From a virus, in the UHGV virus genome UHGV-1373625: 64,000 bases of DNA, one strand, 5' to 3'. Under the pieces are notes generated by a model, which did no database searches, was not told where the DNA came from, and worked only from the letters and a program-made list of their open reading frames with translations. Position numbers and translations under genes: made by a program. Below are positions 2,772 through 41,570 of the stretch, one piece after another (the stretch's first letter is position 1; each line of letters opens with the position of its first letter).

Positions 2772-3077
2772 TTAGATCCCGTGATACTTGCAAGCGTAAT
2801 CAAAAGGCCCCATTTCCAGCGGGATAAACTTTGTTGTAACTTCCCGCAAGCTACTATAAAAGCTTTTCTTTGCTGTAGCCTTTACTACGATTCCGCGAAC
2901 TTCCCCTTTTTCGCAATATGCTACGAAAATAGTGGATAAAGCGCAGTTGGATACATAAAGAACCTTGCTACCGCTCATTTGGAACAAGATATCAGCTTTT
3001 ACGGCCCTCGCTCTGGTATCTGCTACGATGTTCGATACTGTCCAGCCCATGATAAAACCTCTTTCGTTAAAGCTCAT
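2772..3077 (-). CDS. hypothetical protein
   Basis: 101-aa ORF. Confidence 0.45.
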   Translation of the reverse strand: MSFNERGFIMGWTVSNIVADTRARAVKADILFQMSGSKVLYVSNCALSTIFVAYCEKGEVRGIVVKATAKKSFYSSLREVTTKFIPLEMGPFDYACKYHGI

Positions 3078-5308: not shown

Positions 5309-5776
5309 TTATTTTATTTTTACAAGCGTTCGAGTATGTAAACACTGAATATTATAACCACCTGCATAAATTACTTGAATTGTTACTGTTTTTTCTCCTT
5401 TATTAGTGCAGATCCTAAATACGCCTTCAAATCCATCTTTAGAAAAAACGTTTTTGCAAAAAGTAACGCTAGTTATATCTAAATCCGCCATTTTCTTTGA
5501 AATAATTCCGTTCCTTTTTTTGATCATTGCCTCATGATTTTTTATAACGATTTTTTCTATATATTCCATTGGATTATCAGAAAAAATACGAAACCACGTT
5601 TTTCCACCAAAACGTAAGAAAACCTCCTCCTCATTATAAGTTCTATACTCCTCCGTATTACGAAAGGCGTTAAATTCTGCCTTTTTTAAAAAAGCCCATT
5701 CGATATTGGACTTTAATATACCTTCATCAAATGCCGCCAAAATTTTATTTAACATGATAATCAAATCTGAGTTCAT
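5309..5776 (-). CDS. hypothetical protein
   Basis: 155-aa ORF with agagg RBS. Confidence 0.5.
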   Translation of the reverse strand: MNSDLIIMLNKILAAFDEGILKSNIEWAFLKKAEFNAFRNTEEYRTYNEEEVFLRFGGKTWFRIFSDNPMEYIEKIVIKNHEAMIKKRNGIISKKMADLDITSVTFCKNVFSKDGFEGVFRICTNKGEKTVTIQVIYAGGYNIQCLHTRTLVKIK

Positions 5777-5788
5777 ATATAACCTCTG

Positions 5789-6163
5789 CTACCCGAGATA
5801 TTCCATACAGACAACGGGATCTGTCTCAACCGTCTCGAATCCCTCACTAGCGTAAAAGTCAACAAGATCTTCAAGGCTCATGCCATCGAAATCAGGAACC
5901 GCCGCAATTTTCAAGGGAAGGTGCGGAAACTTCCTCTTTGCATAAGATATCGCGGCTCGGAGCAAGACTCTGCCGTGTCCCTTGCGACGATACTCAGGCC
6001 GTACATGAAGATCAGAAACAAGTACGATATCCTGTTCTTCATAGCCATATAATGCGCTAGGGGCATCAATAATCTCTACCTCTTGAGAAATCATGCAATG
6101 ACCATATTCCGACTCAAACACGATATCCCGGCCAGTATGCCCGGTCACAGTGATCTTACTCAT
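5789..6163 (-). CDS. GNAT-family N-acetyltransferase
   Basis: RRKGHGRVLLRAAISYA acetyl-CoA-binding motif; start placed at MSKITV, which has a ggaggg RBS. Confidence 0.7.
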   Translation of the reverse strand: MSKITVTGHTGRDIVFESEYGHCMISQEVEIIDAPSALYGYEEQDIVLVSDLHVRPEYRRKGHGRVLLRAAISYAKRKFPHLPLKIAAVPDFDGMSLEDLVDFYASEGFETVETDPVVCMEYLG

Positions 6164-6339
6164 AAAAATACCCTCCATGCGATTCGTTTAAAGAGACTCT
6201 ATGCAAATACTAAATCACTGTCAAGCGGATCTATGAAATAATCGAAAAGAAAAAATATTCGTGCACTCGCATATTATATAAGGTATTGCAAGTACTGTGC
6301 CACAATATCGGTATGGCTACTCTACGATGGTTCCGAGTC

Positions 6340-32271: not shown

Positions 32272-33633
32272 ATGATGAAATCCGTAATTGACTTTGAAAC
32301 AAGATCCCCTGTAGATATTAAAACTTGCGGAGCTTACGCATATGCTGCGCACCCTGATACTGAGGTGATGATGCTTGCCGTCCGTATATGTGGACAGGAG
32401 GCTCGCGTATGGGTAGCTCCGGCATATAGGCATTTTCTTGATACTGAATTGAGTGACGATGAATTGCAGGATATTATTAATAATTGTGAAGAGATTGCAG
32501 CACATAACGCCCCTTTCGAAAGAGCCATTTGGAAATTCAAGATGGAGCCTCTCTGGTTTAAGCCATTGCCATTAGAGAAAATTCGATGCACGATGTCTCA
32601 GGCCCTTATGTGCAACCTCCCCCGTAAACTGGAACAAGCGGTAAAGGTTTGGCGAAAAGACGCCCCTCAGAAGGATAATGAAGGGCATAAGCTGATGATG
32701 AAAATGTCAAAGCCTAGGAAGTTCCGTAAAGCCGAGCTTTCCGCGTTTCCTGATCCCGAAAAGGCTAAGGCTACTCAAGAATACGTCTATGCTGTACTTT
32801 CAAAAGGTGGCATTCCTACCATTAAAAACTACCATCAATATATTGTCTATCCTTGCGACGAGCCAATGTTTAAACGATATGTTGAATATTGTCGACAGGA
32901 CGTGGTTGCGGAAGAAGTTCTTTTTACGGAGCTTCCTCCTATCCCTGAGCGGGAGCTTAAAGTGTGGCGGCTTGACCAGACAATCAATGACCGTGGAGTA
33001 GGAATTGACAGGTTTCATGCGGTCAAAATTATGGATATGGTTAATAAAGTAGAAGATATTTTGACGGAGGAAGCTTCTGAGATTACGTATGGGGCGGTAT
33101 CGACTATGAAGTCTTCTAAGGCTATTATTGAATGGCTACAATCTCGTGGGGTTGATACTGATTCGGCAAGCAAGCAAGCTATCTCCGACCTTCTTGAACG
33201 GACTGATCTCCCCTCTGATGTTCGTAGATTCCTTGAGATTCGCCAGACTATTGCCATGTCTTCTACGGCAAAATATCAGACCATGCTCTGTACTTCATGC
33301 TATGATGGCAGGGCGCATGGAACGATGATTTATCATGGCGCTTCAACTGGAAGGTTTTGTCTTTCGGAAGGGTCTATGGTCAAAGTTTGTGATGATGCAG
33401 GTTGTGTTTATGAAAAGCCTATCGAAAATGTTGACAGATCAGAAAAAGTATGGGATGGTTCGGATTGGGTCTATCACGATGGTGTAGTTTTTTCAGGAGA
33501 TAAACCCGTTATTGAATGGGATGGGATTGTTGCTACAGAAGAACATAAAGTTTTTATTTCAGATACAGAAAAAATGTCTCTTTTAGAAGCCAAGGAAAGA
33601 GAACTTAAACTCTGGCAAGGAGAGAAACCCTAA
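32272..33633 (+). CDS. Family-A DNA polymerase, N-terminal half (3'-5' exonuclease plus start of the polymerase domain) ending in a split-intein N-fragment
   Basis: IDFETRS Exo I motif; ...IYHGASTGRF then CLSEGSMVKV...TEEHKVF...ERELKL (91 aa) resembles DnaE-type N-inteins; stop TAA overlaps the next ATG (TAATG). Confidence 0.8.
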   Translation: MMKSVIDFETRSPVDIKTCGAYAYAAHPDTEVMMLAVRICGQEARVWVAPAYRHFLDTELSDDELQDIINNCEEIAAHNAPFERAIWKFKMEPLWFKPLPLEKIRCTMSQALMCNLPRKLEQAVKVWRKDAPQKDNEGHKLMMKMSKPRKFRKAELSAFPDPEKAKATQEYVYAVLSKGGIPTIKNYHQYIVYPCDEPMFKRYVEYCRQDVVAEEVLFTELPPIPERELKVWRLDQTINDRGVGIDRFHAVKIMDMVNKVEDILTEEASEITYGAVSTMKSSKAIIEWLQSRGVDTDSASKQAISDLLERTDLPSDVRRFLEIRQTIAMSSTAKYQTMLCTSCYDGRAHGTMIYHGASTGRFCLSEGSMVKVCDDAGCVYEKPIENVDRSEKVWDGSDWVYHDGVVFSGDKPVIEWDGIVATEEHKVFISDTEKMSLLEAKERELKLWQGEKP

Positions 33634-35549
33634 TGCGTACTTATGACATACTTAATGCTGGCCCTAAAAATAGATTTATGGCGAATGGTAAAATCGTAAG
33701 TAATTCAGGTGCTCTTATTCAACCGCAAAATTTGACTAGACCTTCAACAAATAATATGAATATCCCCGAAGGTTCCAAGCCTTTGGATAATTATGATATC
33801 AGTGAAATGGATATCGAACTTGCAGCTAGCGGGAATTTAGATCTTATCCAGCAGTATTGGAAAGACCCTAAAGTCCTTGCCTCCGATTGCCTTCGCGCAA
33901 TGATTCACGCTAGAAAAGGATACGATTTTATCTGTGCCGACTATAGTGGGATTGAAGCCCGAGCATTGGCATGTCTCGCTGGCGAAGAGTATGTTCTTCA
34001 AGGTTTTAGGGACGGCCTTGACCCATATAAAGTTGCAGCTACGACTATCTATGGGGTGAAATATGAAGATGTGGATAAGAAGCAGCGTCAAGTAGGTAAG
34101 ACGGCTACGTTGGCTTGCTTCTCTGCGGATACAATGGTTTATACGAGCTATGGAATAAAAAAAATCGTCGACATAACTAAAGATGATTATGTATGGGATG
34201 GAGAAAACTGGTGTTTGACAGATGGAGCATATTGCCAAGGTATTAAAGAAATCGTTAATTTTTTGGGAGTAGAATCTACACCTGATCAAAAATGGTTGAT
34301 GGATGAAAATATTTGGATAGACTCCGATGCAGCTATTGAATTGTGTAAATGGCTAGGAGATGGGAAAGTTTATTCTAGCGAGCAATATCAAATATTCTCT
34401 AGTTGGGTTAGTTATCAAATCTCAAAAGTTCAAGATAAAATTATTTATAGTTTGAAGAAATACCCAGTAAAAGTAACTATAGCTGAAATGGGAATTGAAG
34501 TAATTCTTTCCGATTTTGACGAAGATGACTTTAATGTATCCTTTGTTGATTCTAAAAGTAGAAAAGGTGTTTATGTATACTTGGGTGAAAGCTTAAGGAA
34601 CACGAGTCTTGAAGATAAAGTTAAATATGTATGCTCCATTATCGTCTTTTTAGCTACGATTTTTTCTAAGTATTCAACAGCTCAAAATTATCTGAATATT
34701 AAAGTGAGTGAAGCCGTTATTAAGGACTATAATAAAATAAATATGGCGATTTTAAAGTTTATCAAAAAAGATGATAGCGATGAAATTATTCTTACTGGGA
34801 GCATTTTATCTAATAGAGATGGTTATACTAAAATAGAAAAAGTTTATGATCTTTTGAATTGTGGAGATAAAAGCAGGTTTATGATACATACATCCTGCGG
34901 TCCACGCATTGTGCATAACTGTGGATATGGAGGTGGTTATGGCGCGTTCCTTCGCTTTGGGGCTGATAGAATGGGCATTGATGAAGAGGAAGGAAAGAAG
35001 ATTATTGCTGCATGGAGAGACGGGCACCCAATGACGGTTAAGCTTTGGCACAAACTCGTTGAAGCTGCTGTCATGGCTATGACGAATAAGGGCGGAATTT
35101 ATTCTTATCGTGGAGTATCATTCCAATACTATAAGAGATTCCTCCTTATGAAGCTCCCTAGTGGCAGGTTCCTCTTCTACTTCGAGCCTAAACTTGAAGA
35201 CGTGGAGATGGCATGGTCTACGCCAGAAAAGCCAGCGTTCAAGAAGCTTGTTACGGCGATGACCTTGACGCCAGAAAAACAATTTGTGAGAAGGCCGCTT
35301 AACCATCTCATACTTTCAGAAAATGTTACACAAGCTTTCTGTAGAGATCTGATGGTGAATGCGATGTTCAATCTCGAAGAAGCCAATTATCCGGTAGTGT
35401 TTCATGTTCATGATGAAATCATTGCGGAAGTTCCTAAAGGGTTTGGGTCTGTCGAGGAATTTGAAAATATCATGTGCAAGCTTCCTCAATGGGCAGAAGG
35501 TCTGCCAGTAAAGGCCGAAGGATGGAGGGGAGAATTTTATAGGAAATAA
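33633..35549 (+). CDS. Family-A DNA polymerase, C-terminal half: 24-aa split-intein C-fragment, then palm/fingers (motifs A, B, C), interrupted by a second, contiguous 268-aa intein
   Basis: MRTYDILNAGPKNRFMANGKIVSN|S matches intein blocks F/G; extein motifs QPQNLTRP, CADYSGIEARALA (A), RQVGKTATLA-[intein]-CGYGGGYG (B), HVHDEI (C). Confidence 0.8.
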   Translation: MRTYDILNAGPKNRFMANGKIVSNSGALIQPQNLTRPSTNNMNIPEGSKPLDNYDISEMDIELAASGNLDLIQQYWKDPKVLASDCLRAMIHARKGYDFICADYSGIEARALACLAGEEYVLQGFRDGLDPYKVAATTIYGVKYEDVDKKQRQVGKTATLACFSADTMVYTSYGIKKIVDITKDDYVWDGENWCLTDGAYCQGIKEIVNFLGVESTPDQKWLMDENIWIDSDAAIELCKWLGDGKVYSSEQYQIFSSWVSYQISKVQDKIIYSLKKYPVKVTIAEMGIEVILSDFDEDDFNVSFVDSKSRKGVYVYLGESLRNTSLEDKVKYVCSIIVFLATIFSKYSTAQNYLNIKVSEAVIKDYNKINMAILKFIKKDDSDEIILTGSILSNRDGYTKIEKVYDLLNCGDKSRFMIHTSCGPRIVHNCGYGGGYGAFLRFGADRMGIDEEEGKKIIAAWRDGHPMTVKLWHKLVEAAVMAMTNKGGIYSYRGVSFQYYKRFLLMKLPSGRFLFYFEPKLEDVEMAWSTPEKPAFKKLVTAMTLTPEKQFVRRPLNHLILSENVTQAFCRDLMVNAMFNLEEANYPVVFHVHDEIIAEVPKGFGSVEEFENIMCKLPQWAEGLPVKAEGWRGEFYRK

Positions 35550-35638: not shown

Positions 35639-36760
35639 ATGTTTGAAGTAAAAGGATCAGTAAGTACAGCTAAGGTTTTCACAGATTATGTGGAGCCGAC
35701 CGCGTTATCTCAGATTATTGAATTATGTAATCAGGAGTTCACCGAAGGAAGTAAAATCCGTATTATGCCTGATGTACATGCTGGTGCTGGATGCGTTATT
35801 GGAACGACGATGACCATTGAAAATAAGAAAATCGTTCCTAATCTTGTCGGTGTTGATATCGGTTGTGGGCTACTGTCCTGTGAATTTACTTTGGGGGATA
35901 AGCTCAACAATAGCTTTTTTGAAGAAGTTGATCGAATTATTCGAAAGTATATTCCCGCAGGATTTAATATTCGTAACGACAAGCATGAATTGGTTAGCGC
36001 CATCAATTTGAATACGCTTGCATGTTGTAATGAAGTTAATATCGCTCGTGCGGAGCACAGTATTGGGACTTTGGGGGGAGGGAATCATTTTATTGAAATA
36101 GGGGAATCCGATAATTTCGATGGTACTTTTTCTTATTTCCTTACCGTACATTCTGGTTCTAGAAATATTGGAAAAGAAGTAGCTACTTATTATCAAAATG
36201 TCGCTATTAAGGAATGTCCGGGCACCCCCAAACATCTAGCGTATCTTTCAGGGGAGATGTTCGATGAATATATGTATGATATGGAAATCATGAAATATTA
36301 TGCCTCTTTGAATCGTGAGGCGATCATTAACGATATCACGCTACACATTGGGATTAAGAAAGACGATGTCTATGAAACCGTTCATAACTATATAGAACGT
36401 ATTGACAATGATGTGTTCATGCTGCGCAAGGGAGCCGTTTCCGCTAAAAAAGAACAGGCTCTTATGATCCCTTTGAATATGAGAGACGGTATTATTTTTG
36501 GTTTTGGTAAAGGACTTGAAGACTGGAACTATTCCGCACCTCATGGAGCTGGACGTAGACTAAGCAGAGGTGAAGCCAAGCGCAGCCTTGATATGAATGA
36601 TTTTAAAAATGAAATGGAAGGTATTTATTCTTCTTGCGTAAATATTTCTACTCTTGATGAAAGTCCTATGGCATACAAGGATGGCTCAGAGATTCGTAAT
36701 AATCTTCAATCGGTGGAAACCTTGTTTACTATTAAGCCAGTATATAACTTTAAAGCATAA
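35639..36760 (+). CDS. rtcB: RtcB-family RNA 3'-phosphate ligase
   Basis: MPDVHAGAGCVIGTT (RtcB PDxHxGxG metal site) and the general RtcB layout; 373 aa. Confidence 0.7.
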   Translation: MFEVKGSVSTAKVFTDYVEPTALSQIIELCNQEFTEGSKIRIMPDVHAGAGCVIGTTMTIENKKIVPNLVGVDIGCGLLSCEFTLGDKLNNSFFEEVDRIIRKYIPAGFNIRNDKHELVSAINLNTLACCNEVNIARAEHSIGTLGGGNHFIEIGESDNFDGTFSYFLTVHSGSRNIGKEVATYYQNVAIKECPGTPKHLAYLSGEMFDEYMYDMEIMKYYASLNREAIINDITLHIGIKKDDVYETVHNYIERIDNDVFMLRKGAVSAKKEQALMIPLNMRDGIIFGFGKGLEDWNYSAPHGAGRRLSRGEAKRSLDMNDFKNEMEGIYSSCVNISTLDESPMAYKDGSEIRNNLQSVETLFTIKPVYNFKA

Positions 36761-37425: not shown

Positions 37426-38181
37426 ATGTATGGATATGTTTATTGTACAACAAATTTAATAACGGGTTGTATGTATATAGGTAGACACGCATCTAGTGTA
37501 TTCGATGAAAAGTATTTTGGCTCGGGAAAGATACTAAAACGAGCTATAAAAAAATATGGAGAGAATAATTTTTCTATAGAGATACTTTGCGAAGCGGAGT
37601 CTTATGAAGATTTAGCTGAGAAAGAACGATATTATATAGCATTATCAGATGCGGTAAACCGTAAAGATTTTTATAATATAGGCAGGGGAGGAGAGGGGTT
37701 CCCTTCTGGAGAAAATCACCCAAATTATGGTAAAAAAGGCAAGGACGCTTTTGGGTGGGGGAAAGTGCATACTGATAAATTTAAAGAATATATGTCGAGA
37801 ATACGAAAAGGTATGAAGTTTTCTTTTGACCATAAGCAAAAATTATCTCAAAAGAAATTAGGGGATGCTACATTAAATAAAGGAAGGCGTGTATCAGAAG
37901 ATACAAAGGCCAAATTATCTCAAATAAACAAAGATGCTCAATTAAATAGGAAAATGGGTATTAAGCAAAATGGTAGAATAAGGACTTTTCATGAGTTCTT
38001 ACACGGCTTTAAAGTTGCTATTTATTTTACAGATGGGTCGATTAAGACTTTTGATAGCATGAAAGCCTGTACGAGATACACTTCATTGAAACATAGGGTG
38101 CGCCACATAAATACTATAAAAAGGATTATTAATGGAGAGACATTACCTCCAGAAGGGGTGAGAAAAATATGCTATATTTAA
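37426..38181 (+). CDS. GIY-YIG homing endonuclease with NUMOD-type DNA-binding repeats
   Basis: GYVYCTTNLITGCMYIGRHA (GIY-YIG), catalytic R..E region, repeated K/H-rich NUMOD3-like motifs. Confidence 0.7.
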   Translation: MYGYVYCTTNLITGCMYIGRHASSVFDEKYFGSGKILKRAIKKYGENNFSIEILCEAESYEDLAEKERYYIALSDAVNRKDFYNIGRGGEGFPSGENHPNYGKKGKDAFGWGKVHTDKFKEYMSRIRKGMKFSFDHKQKLSQKKLGDATLNKGRRVSEDTKAKLSQINKDAQLNRKMGIKQNGRIRTFHEFLHGFKVAIYFTDGSIKTFDSMKACTRYTSLKHRVRHINTIKRIINGETLPPEGVRKICYI

Positions 38182-39327: not shown

Positions 39328-39386
39328 ATAGAAAATTGGGAAGGGGGCTTTAAGCCCCCTTAAACTAAAGTTATATGGAGATAAAT

Positions 39387-41570
39387 ATGGGAAAGAAGCC
39401 TAACATGATTATTAAGCGTGATGGTTCTAAAGTCCTTTTTGACCCCAAAAAGATTGAACTTGCTATTACTAAAGCTCTTATTTCGGAAGGGGTAGCTTCT
39501 ATTTTTACTGGAACTGCTCACGCTATTGCTGAATCTTTTGAAAGTGAAAATGAAACTCCAACGATTAAAGAAATTGAAGAATATGTTTTTAAGAGCCTTT
39601 GCGAGGCCGGGCTTCCTCTTGTAGCAAAAGCCTACGAAGGTTACAGGAGTATTCGAGAATTTCAACGCTCTGATCAATTTACCGATGAATCCATCCTTTC
39701 TATTGTAGCCGGAGGAACGGATGAGGACCTTCGAGATGAGAATAGTAATAAGAATGTCGCTACAGCGTCTACGCAACGAGACATGATCGCTGGTGAGGCT
39801 TCAAAAGATATTGCGATGCGGCACATGCTCCCCCCTCATGTTGTACAGGCCCATAAAGACGGGCTTATTCACTTCCATGATTTGGATTATGCTGTGCAGC
39901 GAATTTTTAACTGTTGTCTTGTTGATTTGCGTGGTCCATTTAAGGACGGAACCGTTATTAATAAGAAGATGATTGAGACTCCTAAGTCGTTCAGGACAGC
40001 CTGTACAGTCGCTACGCAGATCGTCCAACAGGTAGCGTGTGGACAATACGGTGGTCAGACTATTTCCCTCGCGCATCTCGCTCCGTATGTTAGGGTAAGC
40101 TACGAAAAGATTAAAAACCAAGTTAGAGAAGAACTTTTTGGGGATGATGTCCCTCTTGCGTCTCCCACTAAGCTTTGCGGGAATCGAGAAGTTGAGCATA
40201 TTGCCAAGAAGCGGCTTCGTAAAGAAATTGAGGATGGTTTACAAACCATTCAGTATCAGGTAAACACTTTTTCGACAAGTAATGGGCAAGCTCCGTTCCT
40301 TAGTATTTTCATGTATCTGAATGAAGATCCTGAATATATTGAAGAGACGGCAATGCTTATTGAAGAGATGATTAAGCAACGATACATCGGGATGAAGAAT
40401 GAAGCCGGAGTGTATGTTACCCCCGCGTTTCCTAAACTCCTGTATGTGCTTGATGAAAATAATGTTCCTAAAGATAGTAAGTATCGGTATCTGACAGATC
40501 TGGCGGTGAAATGTGTAGCTAGGCGTATGATGCCGGACTTCATTTCCGCAAAAAAGATGAAAGAAAATTATGAAGATGTTTTCCCCTGCATGGGATGCCG
40601 TTCTTTTCTTTCTCAATATAGAGATAAAGATGGCAAGCTGAAATGGTATAATAGATTCAATCAGGGTGTGGTAACTTTGAACCTTGCGGATGCAGGACTT
40701 TCCGCAGACGGTAATATTGACGCTTTCTGGAAAATCCTTGACGAGCGCCTTGAATTGGTTCATGATGGCCTCATGTGCAAACATAAGAGCCTTCTTGGTA
40801 CGAAGGCCGAAAAGTCTCCTATCCATTGGCAGCATGGAGTTATCGCTCGCCTTAAAAAAGATGATGTAATTGACCCATATTTGAAAGATGGGTATTCAAC
40901 TTTGTCTCTCGGATACATTGGGCTCCATGAATGCGTTCTTGCTCTTATCGGAGAATCACATACTACGGAACGTGGAGAAGAACTTGCTGTACGTATTATG
41001 CGTAGATTGAGAAAAGCTTGCGACGATTGGCGTGCAGAATCTGGTCTTGGATTCAGCTTGTACGGGTCGCCTTCCGAATCTACAACTTATCGTCTTGCAC
41101 AGACAACTCAGAAGCGATTTGGAGTGGTTAAGGGAATTACTGACCGAGATTATTTGACAAATTCATACCATGTTGATGTAACCGAAAAGATTAGTGCATT
41201 TGATAAACTTCGTTTTGAATCTCAATTTCAGAAAATTTCTTCCGGTGGCTGCATCAGCTATGTGGAAGTTCCGAATTTGGAGCAGAACCTCGAAGTGATT
41301 GATCAATTGGTTTCTTATATGTATGAAACTATTCAGTACGCTGAGATCAATACCAAATCGGACTATTGCGCTAAATGTGGATTTCGAGGAGAAATCAAAC
41401 TGAATAATAATCTTGATTGGGAATGTCCTCAGTGCCATACGGTAAATCGAGATGATCTTACTGTTTGCCGTAGAACTTGTGGCTACTTGGGCGATAATTT
41501 TTGGAACAAGGGACGAACCGAGGAAATCGGTGCCCGAGTATTGCATGTTGACAATGAAGACTTGAGCTGA
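39387..41570 (+). CDS. nrdD: Anaerobic ribonucleoside-triphosphate reductase (class III)
   Basis: C-terminal glycyl-radical region CRRTCGYLG and Zn ribbon CAKCG..CPQC; start at 39387 with ggaga RBS. Confidence 0.85.
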   Translation: MGKKPNMIIKRDGSKVLFDPKKIELAITKALISEGVASIFTGTAHAIAESFESENETPTIKEIEEYVFKSLCEAGLPLVAKAYEGYRSIREFQRSDQFTDESILSIVAGGTDEDLRDENSNKNVATASTQRDMIAGEASKDIAMRHMLPPHVVQAHKDGLIHFHDLDYAVQRIFNCCLVDLRGPFKDGTVINKKMIETPKSFRTACTVATQIVQQVACGQYGGQTISLAHLAPYVRVSYEKIKNQVREELFGDDVPLASPTKLCGNREVEHIAKKRLRKEIEDGLQTIQYQVNTFSTSNGQAPFLSIFMYLNEDPEYIEETAMLIEEMIKQRYIGMKNEAGVYVTPAFPKLLYVLDENNVPKDSKYRYLTDLAVKCVARRMMPDFISAKKMKENYEDVFPCMGCRSFLSQYRDKDGKLKWYNRFNQGVVTLNLADAGLSADGNIDAFWKILDERLELVHDGLMCKHKSLLGTKAEKSPIHWQHGVIARLKKDDVIDPYLKDGYSTLSLGYIGLHECVLALIGESHTTERGEELAVRIMRRLRKACDDWRAESGLGFSLYGSPSESTTYRLAQTTQKRFGVVKGITDRDYLTNSYHVDVTEKISAFDKLRFESQFQKISSGGCISYVEVPNLEQNLEVIDQLVSYMYETIQYAEINTKSDYCAKCGFRGEIKLNNNLDWECPQCHTVNRDDLTVCRRTCGYLGDNFWNKGRTEEIGARVLHVDNEDLS

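Follow-up and report, generated by a model that had tools for sequence, protein, structure and literature searches.

A candidate compact split intein in a family A DNA polymerase encoded by two overlapping phage genes

Introduction

In the fractured genes gp41-1, NrdJ-1, NrdA-2, IMPDH-1 and DnaE, replication and nucleotide-metabolism genes of phages and metagenomes are split by inteins. The host proteins named in the available part of Dassa et al. (2009; PMC2677866) are gp41, NrdA, NrdJ, IMPDH and DnaE, with PolA not among them, and the open-access literature that we searched describes no split intein in PolA. Here we analyze a locus of this kind in the virus genome UHGV-1373625 (a stretch of 64,000 nucleotides, hereafter “the window”). 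An earlier note, made from the sequence alone, had proposed that its DNA polymerase I is encoded as two genes joined by a naturally split intein. Our analysis makes it very probable that a family A polymerase is produced here from two adjacent, coupled genes and rejoined by class-1 trans-splicing, the locus being a fractured gene after loss of its endonuclease.

The closest described systems differ from this locus in several ways. In the Npu and Ssp DnaE inteins the host protein is Pol III alpha and not PolA. According to the available part of PMC2677866 the DnaE halves are located at unlinked loci, whereas the two genes studied here overlap by 1 nt. The N-terminal DnaE halves (IntN) comprise 102-123 amino acids (aa) and the C-terminal halves (IntC) 35-36 aa (PMC2664965), compared to 91 and 24 aa here. 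The DnaE inteins also use Cys at position +1 instead of Ser, and they possess a strand of the IKIATRKYLG type ahead of block F that is absent from the intein described here. The gp41-1 intein, with 125 aa, has been called “the smallest intein” (PMC12245125); the present pair totals 115 aa with a 24-aa IntC, and is indeed as unusually small as the earlier note had supposed. The split PolB intein of Nanoarchaeum equitans resides in an archaeal family B polymerase encoded by unlinked genes and is distant in sequence. The split exo/pol PolA of T7-like cyanophages (PMC10201439) is likewise a family A polymerase derived from two adjacent genes, but here it is the polymerase domain that is interrupted, with intein halves at the break. 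Contiguous phage PolA inteins (APSE-1 P45, Dhillonvirus/Jerseyvirus, Streptococcus Javan prophages, Ruminococcus NatCom phages) have homologous HINT sequences (39-47% identity to the N-intein), but they are unsplit and occupy other sites, at motif B or near motif C. The APSE-1 and Dhillonvirus inteins were rejected as same-site candidates because of their positions at other PolA sites.

Results

The polymerase is encoded by two open reading frames (ORF1 and ORF2), whose features are as follows (positions refer to the window):

32272-33633, plus strand: ORF1, 453 aa, N-extein and N-intein, then TAA
32272-33357, plus strand: N-extein, 362 aa, PolA 3'-5' exonuclease domain and N-terminal part of the polymerase domain, ending in ...YHGASTGRF (TGR motif)
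33358-33630, plus strand: N-intein, 91 codons, CLSEGSMVKV...ATEEHKVFISDTEKMSLLEAKERELKLWQGEKP, with block B ATEEH, the conserved ...ELKLWQG and a 3-residue tail EKP
33358-33360, plus strand: codon TGT of Cys1
33617-33622, plus strand: Shine-Dalgarno-like (SD-like) AAGGAG for ORF2, inside the last N-intein codons, with the ATG 10 nt further on
33631-33635, plus strand: TAATG junction, in which TAA (33631-33633) shares one base with ATG (33633-33635) and the frame changes
33633-35549, plus strand: ORF2, 638 aa, beginning with MRTYDILNAGPKNRFMANGKIVSN followed directly by SGALIQPQNLTRP
33633-33704, plus strand: C-intein, 24 codons, MRTYDILNAGPKNRFMANGKIVSN, blocks F and G only, last codon AAT for the terminal Asn
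33705-33707, plus strand: codon TCA of Ser+1, the C-extein nucleophile
33705-34115, plus strand: C-extein part 1, SGALIQPQNLTRP..., motif A (DYSGIEAR), to ...QVGKTATLA; Pfam DNA_pol_A, E = 4.2e-16
34116-34919, plus strand: second, contiguous intein, 268 aa, motif B site, TATLA/CFSAD...RIVHN/CGYGGG
34920-35549, plus strand: C-extein part 2, rest of motif B, motif C (HVHDE), C-terminus and stop codon; PHROG 10285 and 17, DNA polymerase

The intein interval (33358-33704) and the TAATG overlap had been placed exactly by the earlier note. Relative to ORF1, ORF2 uses the +2/-1 frame, which upstream is open only from 33609; an SD-like motif precedes most genes in the window. The N-extein matches PHROG 17 DNA polymerase (E = 1.5e-34) and, in a tblastn search, about 1650 phage PolA genes. 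Alignment with intein-free alleles reveals that all PolA motifs are intact, and the exteins add up to 362 + (638 - 24 - 268) = 708 aa, exactly as many as in the intein-free alleles L007 and L008. Between the two halves the window contains neither an intervening ORF nor a homing-endonuclease gene, as the earlier note had stated, the overlap being 1 nt. A group I intron was rejected because an intervening sequence is absent. Megablast of the locus against GenBank phages returned zero matches.

The borders of the insertion were determined from alleles of the same phage lineage. Scanning IMG/VR with ORF1 yielded ten such loci (93-100% protein identity). Five of them (L003-L006, L012) share the two-gene structure of the window and in the other five (L007-L011) the site is empty; L007, L008 and L010 (708/709 aa) are intein-free throughout, while L009 and L011 carry inteins at other sites. 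The N-extein of the window is 93-99% identical to the alleles that are empty at the split site, which read ...STGRF-AGALIQPQN in four cases and ...STGRF-SGALIQPQN in L009. Since these alleles join STGRF directly to [A/S]GALIQPQN, the insert consists of exactly 91 + 24 residues, beginning with Cys1 and ending with the terminal Asn, and the PolA extein resumes right after TGRF as had been claimed. The residue following the insert is Ser in every lineage allele that carries it, and in the intein-free siblings of the window the same position is Ala (four) or Ser (one). This junction presumably corresponds to ...TGRLSS..PNLQNIP of E. coli Pol I.

The split itself is a conserved feature. In L003-L006 and L012 the junction is identical to that of the window, yet up to 34 of 350 nearby bases differ. 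Among the five split relatives 26 of the 33 variable sites in the N-intein occupy third codon positions of the ORF1 frame, and all variable sites in the C-intein (6/6) occupy third positions of the ORF2 frame, which are second positions in the ORF1 frame. Selection therefore acts on one reading frame before the junction and on another after it. Purifying selection on both halves, like the gene structure, the insertion borders and the conservation of the split, is directly observed.

The same arrangement is found far beyond the lineage. A search with ORF1 retrieved many proteins, about 410-480 aa long, with full coverage of the query at an identity of only 33-53%, and all of these stop 0-35 residues beyond a strongly conserved N-intein. 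An exhaustive phmmer search with the N-intein returned 1361 cluster representatives at E <= 1e-3; the following family counts were drawn from 187 retrieved proteins with an N-intein domain. More than half of these (97/187) end no more than 45 residues after the domain. Cys1 is present in 86 of the 87 split homologues with an identifiable junction, and block B [T/S]xxH in 93 of 97, its His being invariant in both family alignments (A1 and A2). At about 50 loci from viral and bacterial genomes each recovered C-half opens with 24-26 residues of the form x[RK]TYDI[ILV]NAGP.NRF.ANG[RK]IVSN/S and begins between -1 and about 1100 nt downstream of the N-half stop. A homology search with the first 170 aa of ORF2 gave 3 matches. 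None of 50,697 GenBank phage records reaches 80% coverage of the N-intein query, and the inspected matches are all unsplit. Two split candidates suggested by tblastn coverage, phiFL4A and phiCDKH02, turned out to be ordinary contiguous, intein-free PolA genes. The predicted element of the window is a compact member of this large split-polymerase-intein family.

Sequence conservation also points to the nature of the two halves. In the window block B T-x-x-H is present as ATEEH, and the block F Asp, the terminal Asn and the +1 nucleophile are found in TYDI...IVSN/S. The block A/B features that the earlier note had recognized in the 91-aa segment thus recur throughout the family, and its assignment of blocks F and G with a subsequent Ser to the start of ORF2 agrees with 26 paired intein-bearing sequences, in which the block F Asp, the terminal Asn and a Ser or Cys at +1 are invariant. 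In alignment A2 the invariant positions comprise Cys1, the block B His, the block F Tyr-Asp-Ile and the terminal Ser-Asn, and along the C-intein Y, D, I, N, A, G, R, F, G, V, S and N. At +1 there are 24 Ser and 2 Cys among the paired sequences, compared to S30, A18, T18, G6 and V1 in 73 intein-free homologues. Residues without a nucleophilic side chain (A, G or V) accordingly occur in 0/26 intein-bearing versus 25/73 intein-free sequences (Fisher p = 1.6e-4). The conserved catalytic residues, together with a +1 nucleophile that is tied to the presence of the intein, argue for active splicing over mere docking of the halves.

Both halves are homologous to contiguous PolA inteins (Javan422, NatCom_29429, APSE-1 P45 and the Dhillonvirus polymerase annotated as “putative intein-containing”). 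A profile of the 26 paired sequences, searched against PDB, finds DnaE inteins among its best matches, weakly (E 0.12-0.64), with the blocks pairing up as ATeeHK with ATKDHK, ELkLW with ELDLMRV, tYDI with VYDI and ivSN with IASN. The split falls at the canonical endonuclease-insertion point between blocks B and F (...ERELKLWQG aligns to Npu ...ERELDLMRV), the very position that an endonuclease gene or a linker occupies in relatives.

In most relatives the halves are separated by a gap of 600-900 nt that contains an ORF of 280-310 aa bearing a GIY-YIG nuclease domain at its N-terminus (Pfam PF01541). The sibling locus L100, about 98% identical to the window, contains N-half, GIY-YIG ORF and C-half in this order, with the C-half again starting on a TAATG; its 282-aa GIY-YIG gene lies at 5338-6186 (ENA ERZ27292122 k141_184750). 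Most relatives and L100 thereby show the typical fractured-gene layout, whereas the window itself has no endonuclease gene between the halves. Intermediate arrangements are also found: L028 and L030 retain a 79-aa GIY-YIG remnant within a 192-nt gap, in L015 the spacer is 21 nt long and includes an SD motif of its own, and the gaps of L110 and L111 measure 51 and 138 nt. In L021 the frame runs on beyond the N-intein as a 387-aa ORF, with the C-half in another frame. Other lineages carry contiguous mini-inteins of 124-139 aa at the same site, in which the linker between ...LW.G and TYDI is unconserved. Given these endonuclease-bearing, remnant and short-gap relatives, the window allele stands at the end of a known evolutionary route, compact and without an endonuclease gene. 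It fits the endonuclease-loss step of the model proposed in PMC2677866, as far as the available part of that paper sets it out. A simple deletion leading from an L100-like allele to the window allele looks unlikely, because the two are nearly identical up to ...LLEAKE and divergent from there to the TAATG, their N-intein tails being only loosely alike.

Three side observations concern the N-intein. The N-half of L153 (P0033, about 3040-3071), like P0124 and P0088, runs past ...LWTG into RCVQLQNML and a stop; this stretch resembles SGRLVQVQNLP, the C-extein start that follows the C-intein, as if a short copy of the target site lay ahead of the GIY-YIG gene. In P0101, a metagenomic N-half of 447 aa, the intein starts with GLAEG instead of CLAEG; the replacement of Cys1 by Gly possibly marks a splicing-dead variant or a sequencing error. 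The window lineage, alone among the aligned sequences, has two extra cysteines near Cys1 (VCDDAGC, N-intein residues 11-16, 33388-33405), and a redox-sensitive disulfide between these and Cys1 is conceivable.

Discussion

Based on these data the following scenario is proposed. Gene 1 would supply the exonuclease and N-terminal polymerase part fused to the 91-aa N-intein, and gene 2 the 24-aa C-intein fused to the remaining polymerase. Translation of the two ORFs is probably coupled, given the TAATG overlap and the embedded SD motif. The two intein halves would associate into a HINT domain, in which Cys1 would undergo an N-S acyl shift to form a thioester with Phe-1; Ser+1 would attack this thioester and Asn24 of IntC would cyclize. 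This would ligate ...TGRF to SGALIQ... directly behind the conserved TGR motif, next to its active-site arginine. The 268-aa motif B intein presumably splices in cis, so that a 708-aa polymerase would result. In evolutionary terms, a fractured gene would have lost its free-standing GIY-YIG homing endonuclease gene, leaving the 1-nt overlap.

Some observations call for caution. While PolA profiles match the exteins, as expected from the earlier note, the Pfam and NCBIfam intein models match neither half at E <= 1. The contiguous homologue P0087 is missed likewise, and the lack of curated matches reflects model sensitivity and not a mechanistic feature. The ORFs have weak matches to PHROG 26005/93, phmmer of the fused 116-aa intein against PDB sequences produced a chance match only, and a single-sequence AlphaFold model of the fused intein reached a pLDDT of 46, too low for use. 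The C-intein has just two residues ahead of block F as compared to 14 in Npu DnaE, and Npu shows 8 inserted residues at this point of the profile alignment. Many N-halves of relatives bear a short tail, ...GNGTQFTS, which might supply the missing strand; the window (EKP) and several others (...LWAGN and a stop) lack this tail.

The apparent truncation of the HINT domain, with the strand before block F missing, and the Gly1 of one relative would suit a non-splicing assembly, in which the intein halves hold the polymerase fragments together non-covalently and the peptide bond is never made. There is precedent for non-covalent assembly in the NrdA of Aeh1, which is fragmented by a homing endonuclease gene (PMC3045599). 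A pure docking module, however, would need none of the near-invariant residues (Cys1, block B T..H, block F Asp, terminal Asn and Ser/Cys at +1). By comparison with Pol I, an unspliced 115-aa domain would also adjoin the conserved TGR motif. We consider this explanation improbable, although it is the least improbable of the rivals. Programmed -1 ribosomal frameshifting, yielding a contiguous cis-splicing precursor, might be suspected because ORF2 sits in the -1 frame of ORF1 and the frames overlap by 25 nt. The canonical X XXY YYZ slippery heptamer, however, is absent from GGAGAGAAACCCTAA as read from the sequence, and ORF2 owns an AAGGAG and an ATG. Moreover, the halves of relatives lie 21-1100 nt or a whole gene apart, and frameshifting therefore cannot be the mechanism of the family; for the window it is very improbable.

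A sequencing or assembly frameshift would turn the locus into one contiguous 115-aa mini-intein with an artefactual stop/start overlap. Both frames are open over 33609-33633, a single indel there would join ORF1 and ORF2, and contiguous mini-inteins exist at this site in other lineages. Against this stand six independent assemblies (the window, L003-L006 and L012) with the same junction, and 97 diverged homologues broken at this very point, in many of which an endonuclease gene or a spacer, plus a separate SD and ATG, lies between the halves. The conserved junction, the frame-switching selection and the split homologues together exclude such an error for all practical purposes. Just as little can be said for a decaying pseudogene broken by a dead mobile element. 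Such a view could invoke the two insertions in the polymerase gene and the intein-free alleles circulating in the same population, but most substitutions in the exteins and the intein halves are silent when read in the correct frames, the PolA motifs are all intact, and the split arrangement persists across lineages with only 33-53% extein identity. A polymerase gene split by an intein, as the earlier note had read it, is supported by exact insertion borders and by a split kept in 97 homologues.

In its proposed mechanism and its genomic logic the locus follows known split inteins and fractured genes, and in this sense it is conceptually unsurprising. New within the open-access literature are the host protein, the insertion site and the size (115 aa in total, with a 24-aa IntC). 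Whether the family represents the smallest natural protein-splicing element known appears evenly balanced to us; this would mean a fully active split intein of 112-115 residues whose C-half of about 24 residues comprises blocks F and G and which lacks a beta-strand common to all structurally characterised HINT domains. No natural split intein would then have been reported from a family A DNA polymerase before. Short C-inteins are wanted by protein engineers, as they are accessible to peptide synthesis. Such C-inteins were engineered by Aranko et al. (2009) at a time when natural IntC measured 35-36 aa (PMC2664965). If the reading is true, a natural, strongly conserved 24-aa IntC with Ser+1 would make a valuable ligation tool, and roughly 100 homologues could be used for consensus design. 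For intein biology the family tests how much of the HINT fold is dispensable. A single phage population here holds empty, endonuclease-bearing and endonuclease-free alleles of one site, and its polymerase has two more intein sites; this offers a neat and rarely available direct view of the homing cycle and of the gene-breaking model for fractured genes. Standard intein HMMs miss this intein family, and the polymerase halves that carry it are annotated only as “DNA polymerase” or “hypothetical protein”.

Other inteins and genomic context

The second, contiguous intein in ORF2, absent from the earlier note, is shared by the window, L003, L004, L012 and L011; L009 has a larger variant, and L005-L008 and L010 lack it with exact borders. 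It uses the same insertion site as the Javan422 and NatCom mini-inteins. Pfam recognizes no endonuclease domain in its 268 aa, and its block B appears to read TPDQ instead of T..H. A third intein site was observed in L011 (IMGVR_UViG_3300045988_157179) at about residues 900-1220 of a 1300-aa PolA (LISEN/CFSGET...IIVHN/CTQAF). It lies near motif C and resembles the APSE-1 P45 site. At the +1 position of this site L005 has Cys (NCTQAF) but no intein, while other alleles have Val or Leu; the Cys may be a footprint of intein loss.

The window covers a phage replication and structural region that encodes a helicase, a PD-(D/E)XK-type exonuclease, a Gp2.5-like single-stranded DNA-binding protein (SSB), PolA, RtcB, a GIY-YIG gene, NrdD and a portal protein. 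Three genes downstream of PolA are located as follows:

35639-36760, plus strand: RtcB-type RNA ligase
37426-38181, plus strand: free-standing GIY-YIG homing-endonuclease-like gene, MYGYVYCTTNLITGCMYIGRH..., PHROG 314 (E = 7.6e-42), downstream of the RtcB gene and a ThyX-like ORF
39375-41570, plus strand: NrdD anaerobic ribonucleotide reductase

The ThyX-like label was given by eye only, and the PHROG match of this ORF (6721) has unknown function. Sibling loci vary in content downstream of PolA. RtcB and NrdD flanking the replication module fit an anaerobic (gut or rumen) host. Genome bins with the split version belong mostly to gut or rumen Bacillota, e.g. Ruminococcus, Oscillospiraceae and Blautia, and the split version is also found in a phage-like region (pRha, Enc34-type SSB, VapE) of the Alicyclobacillus sendaiensis assembly GCA_030555535.1.

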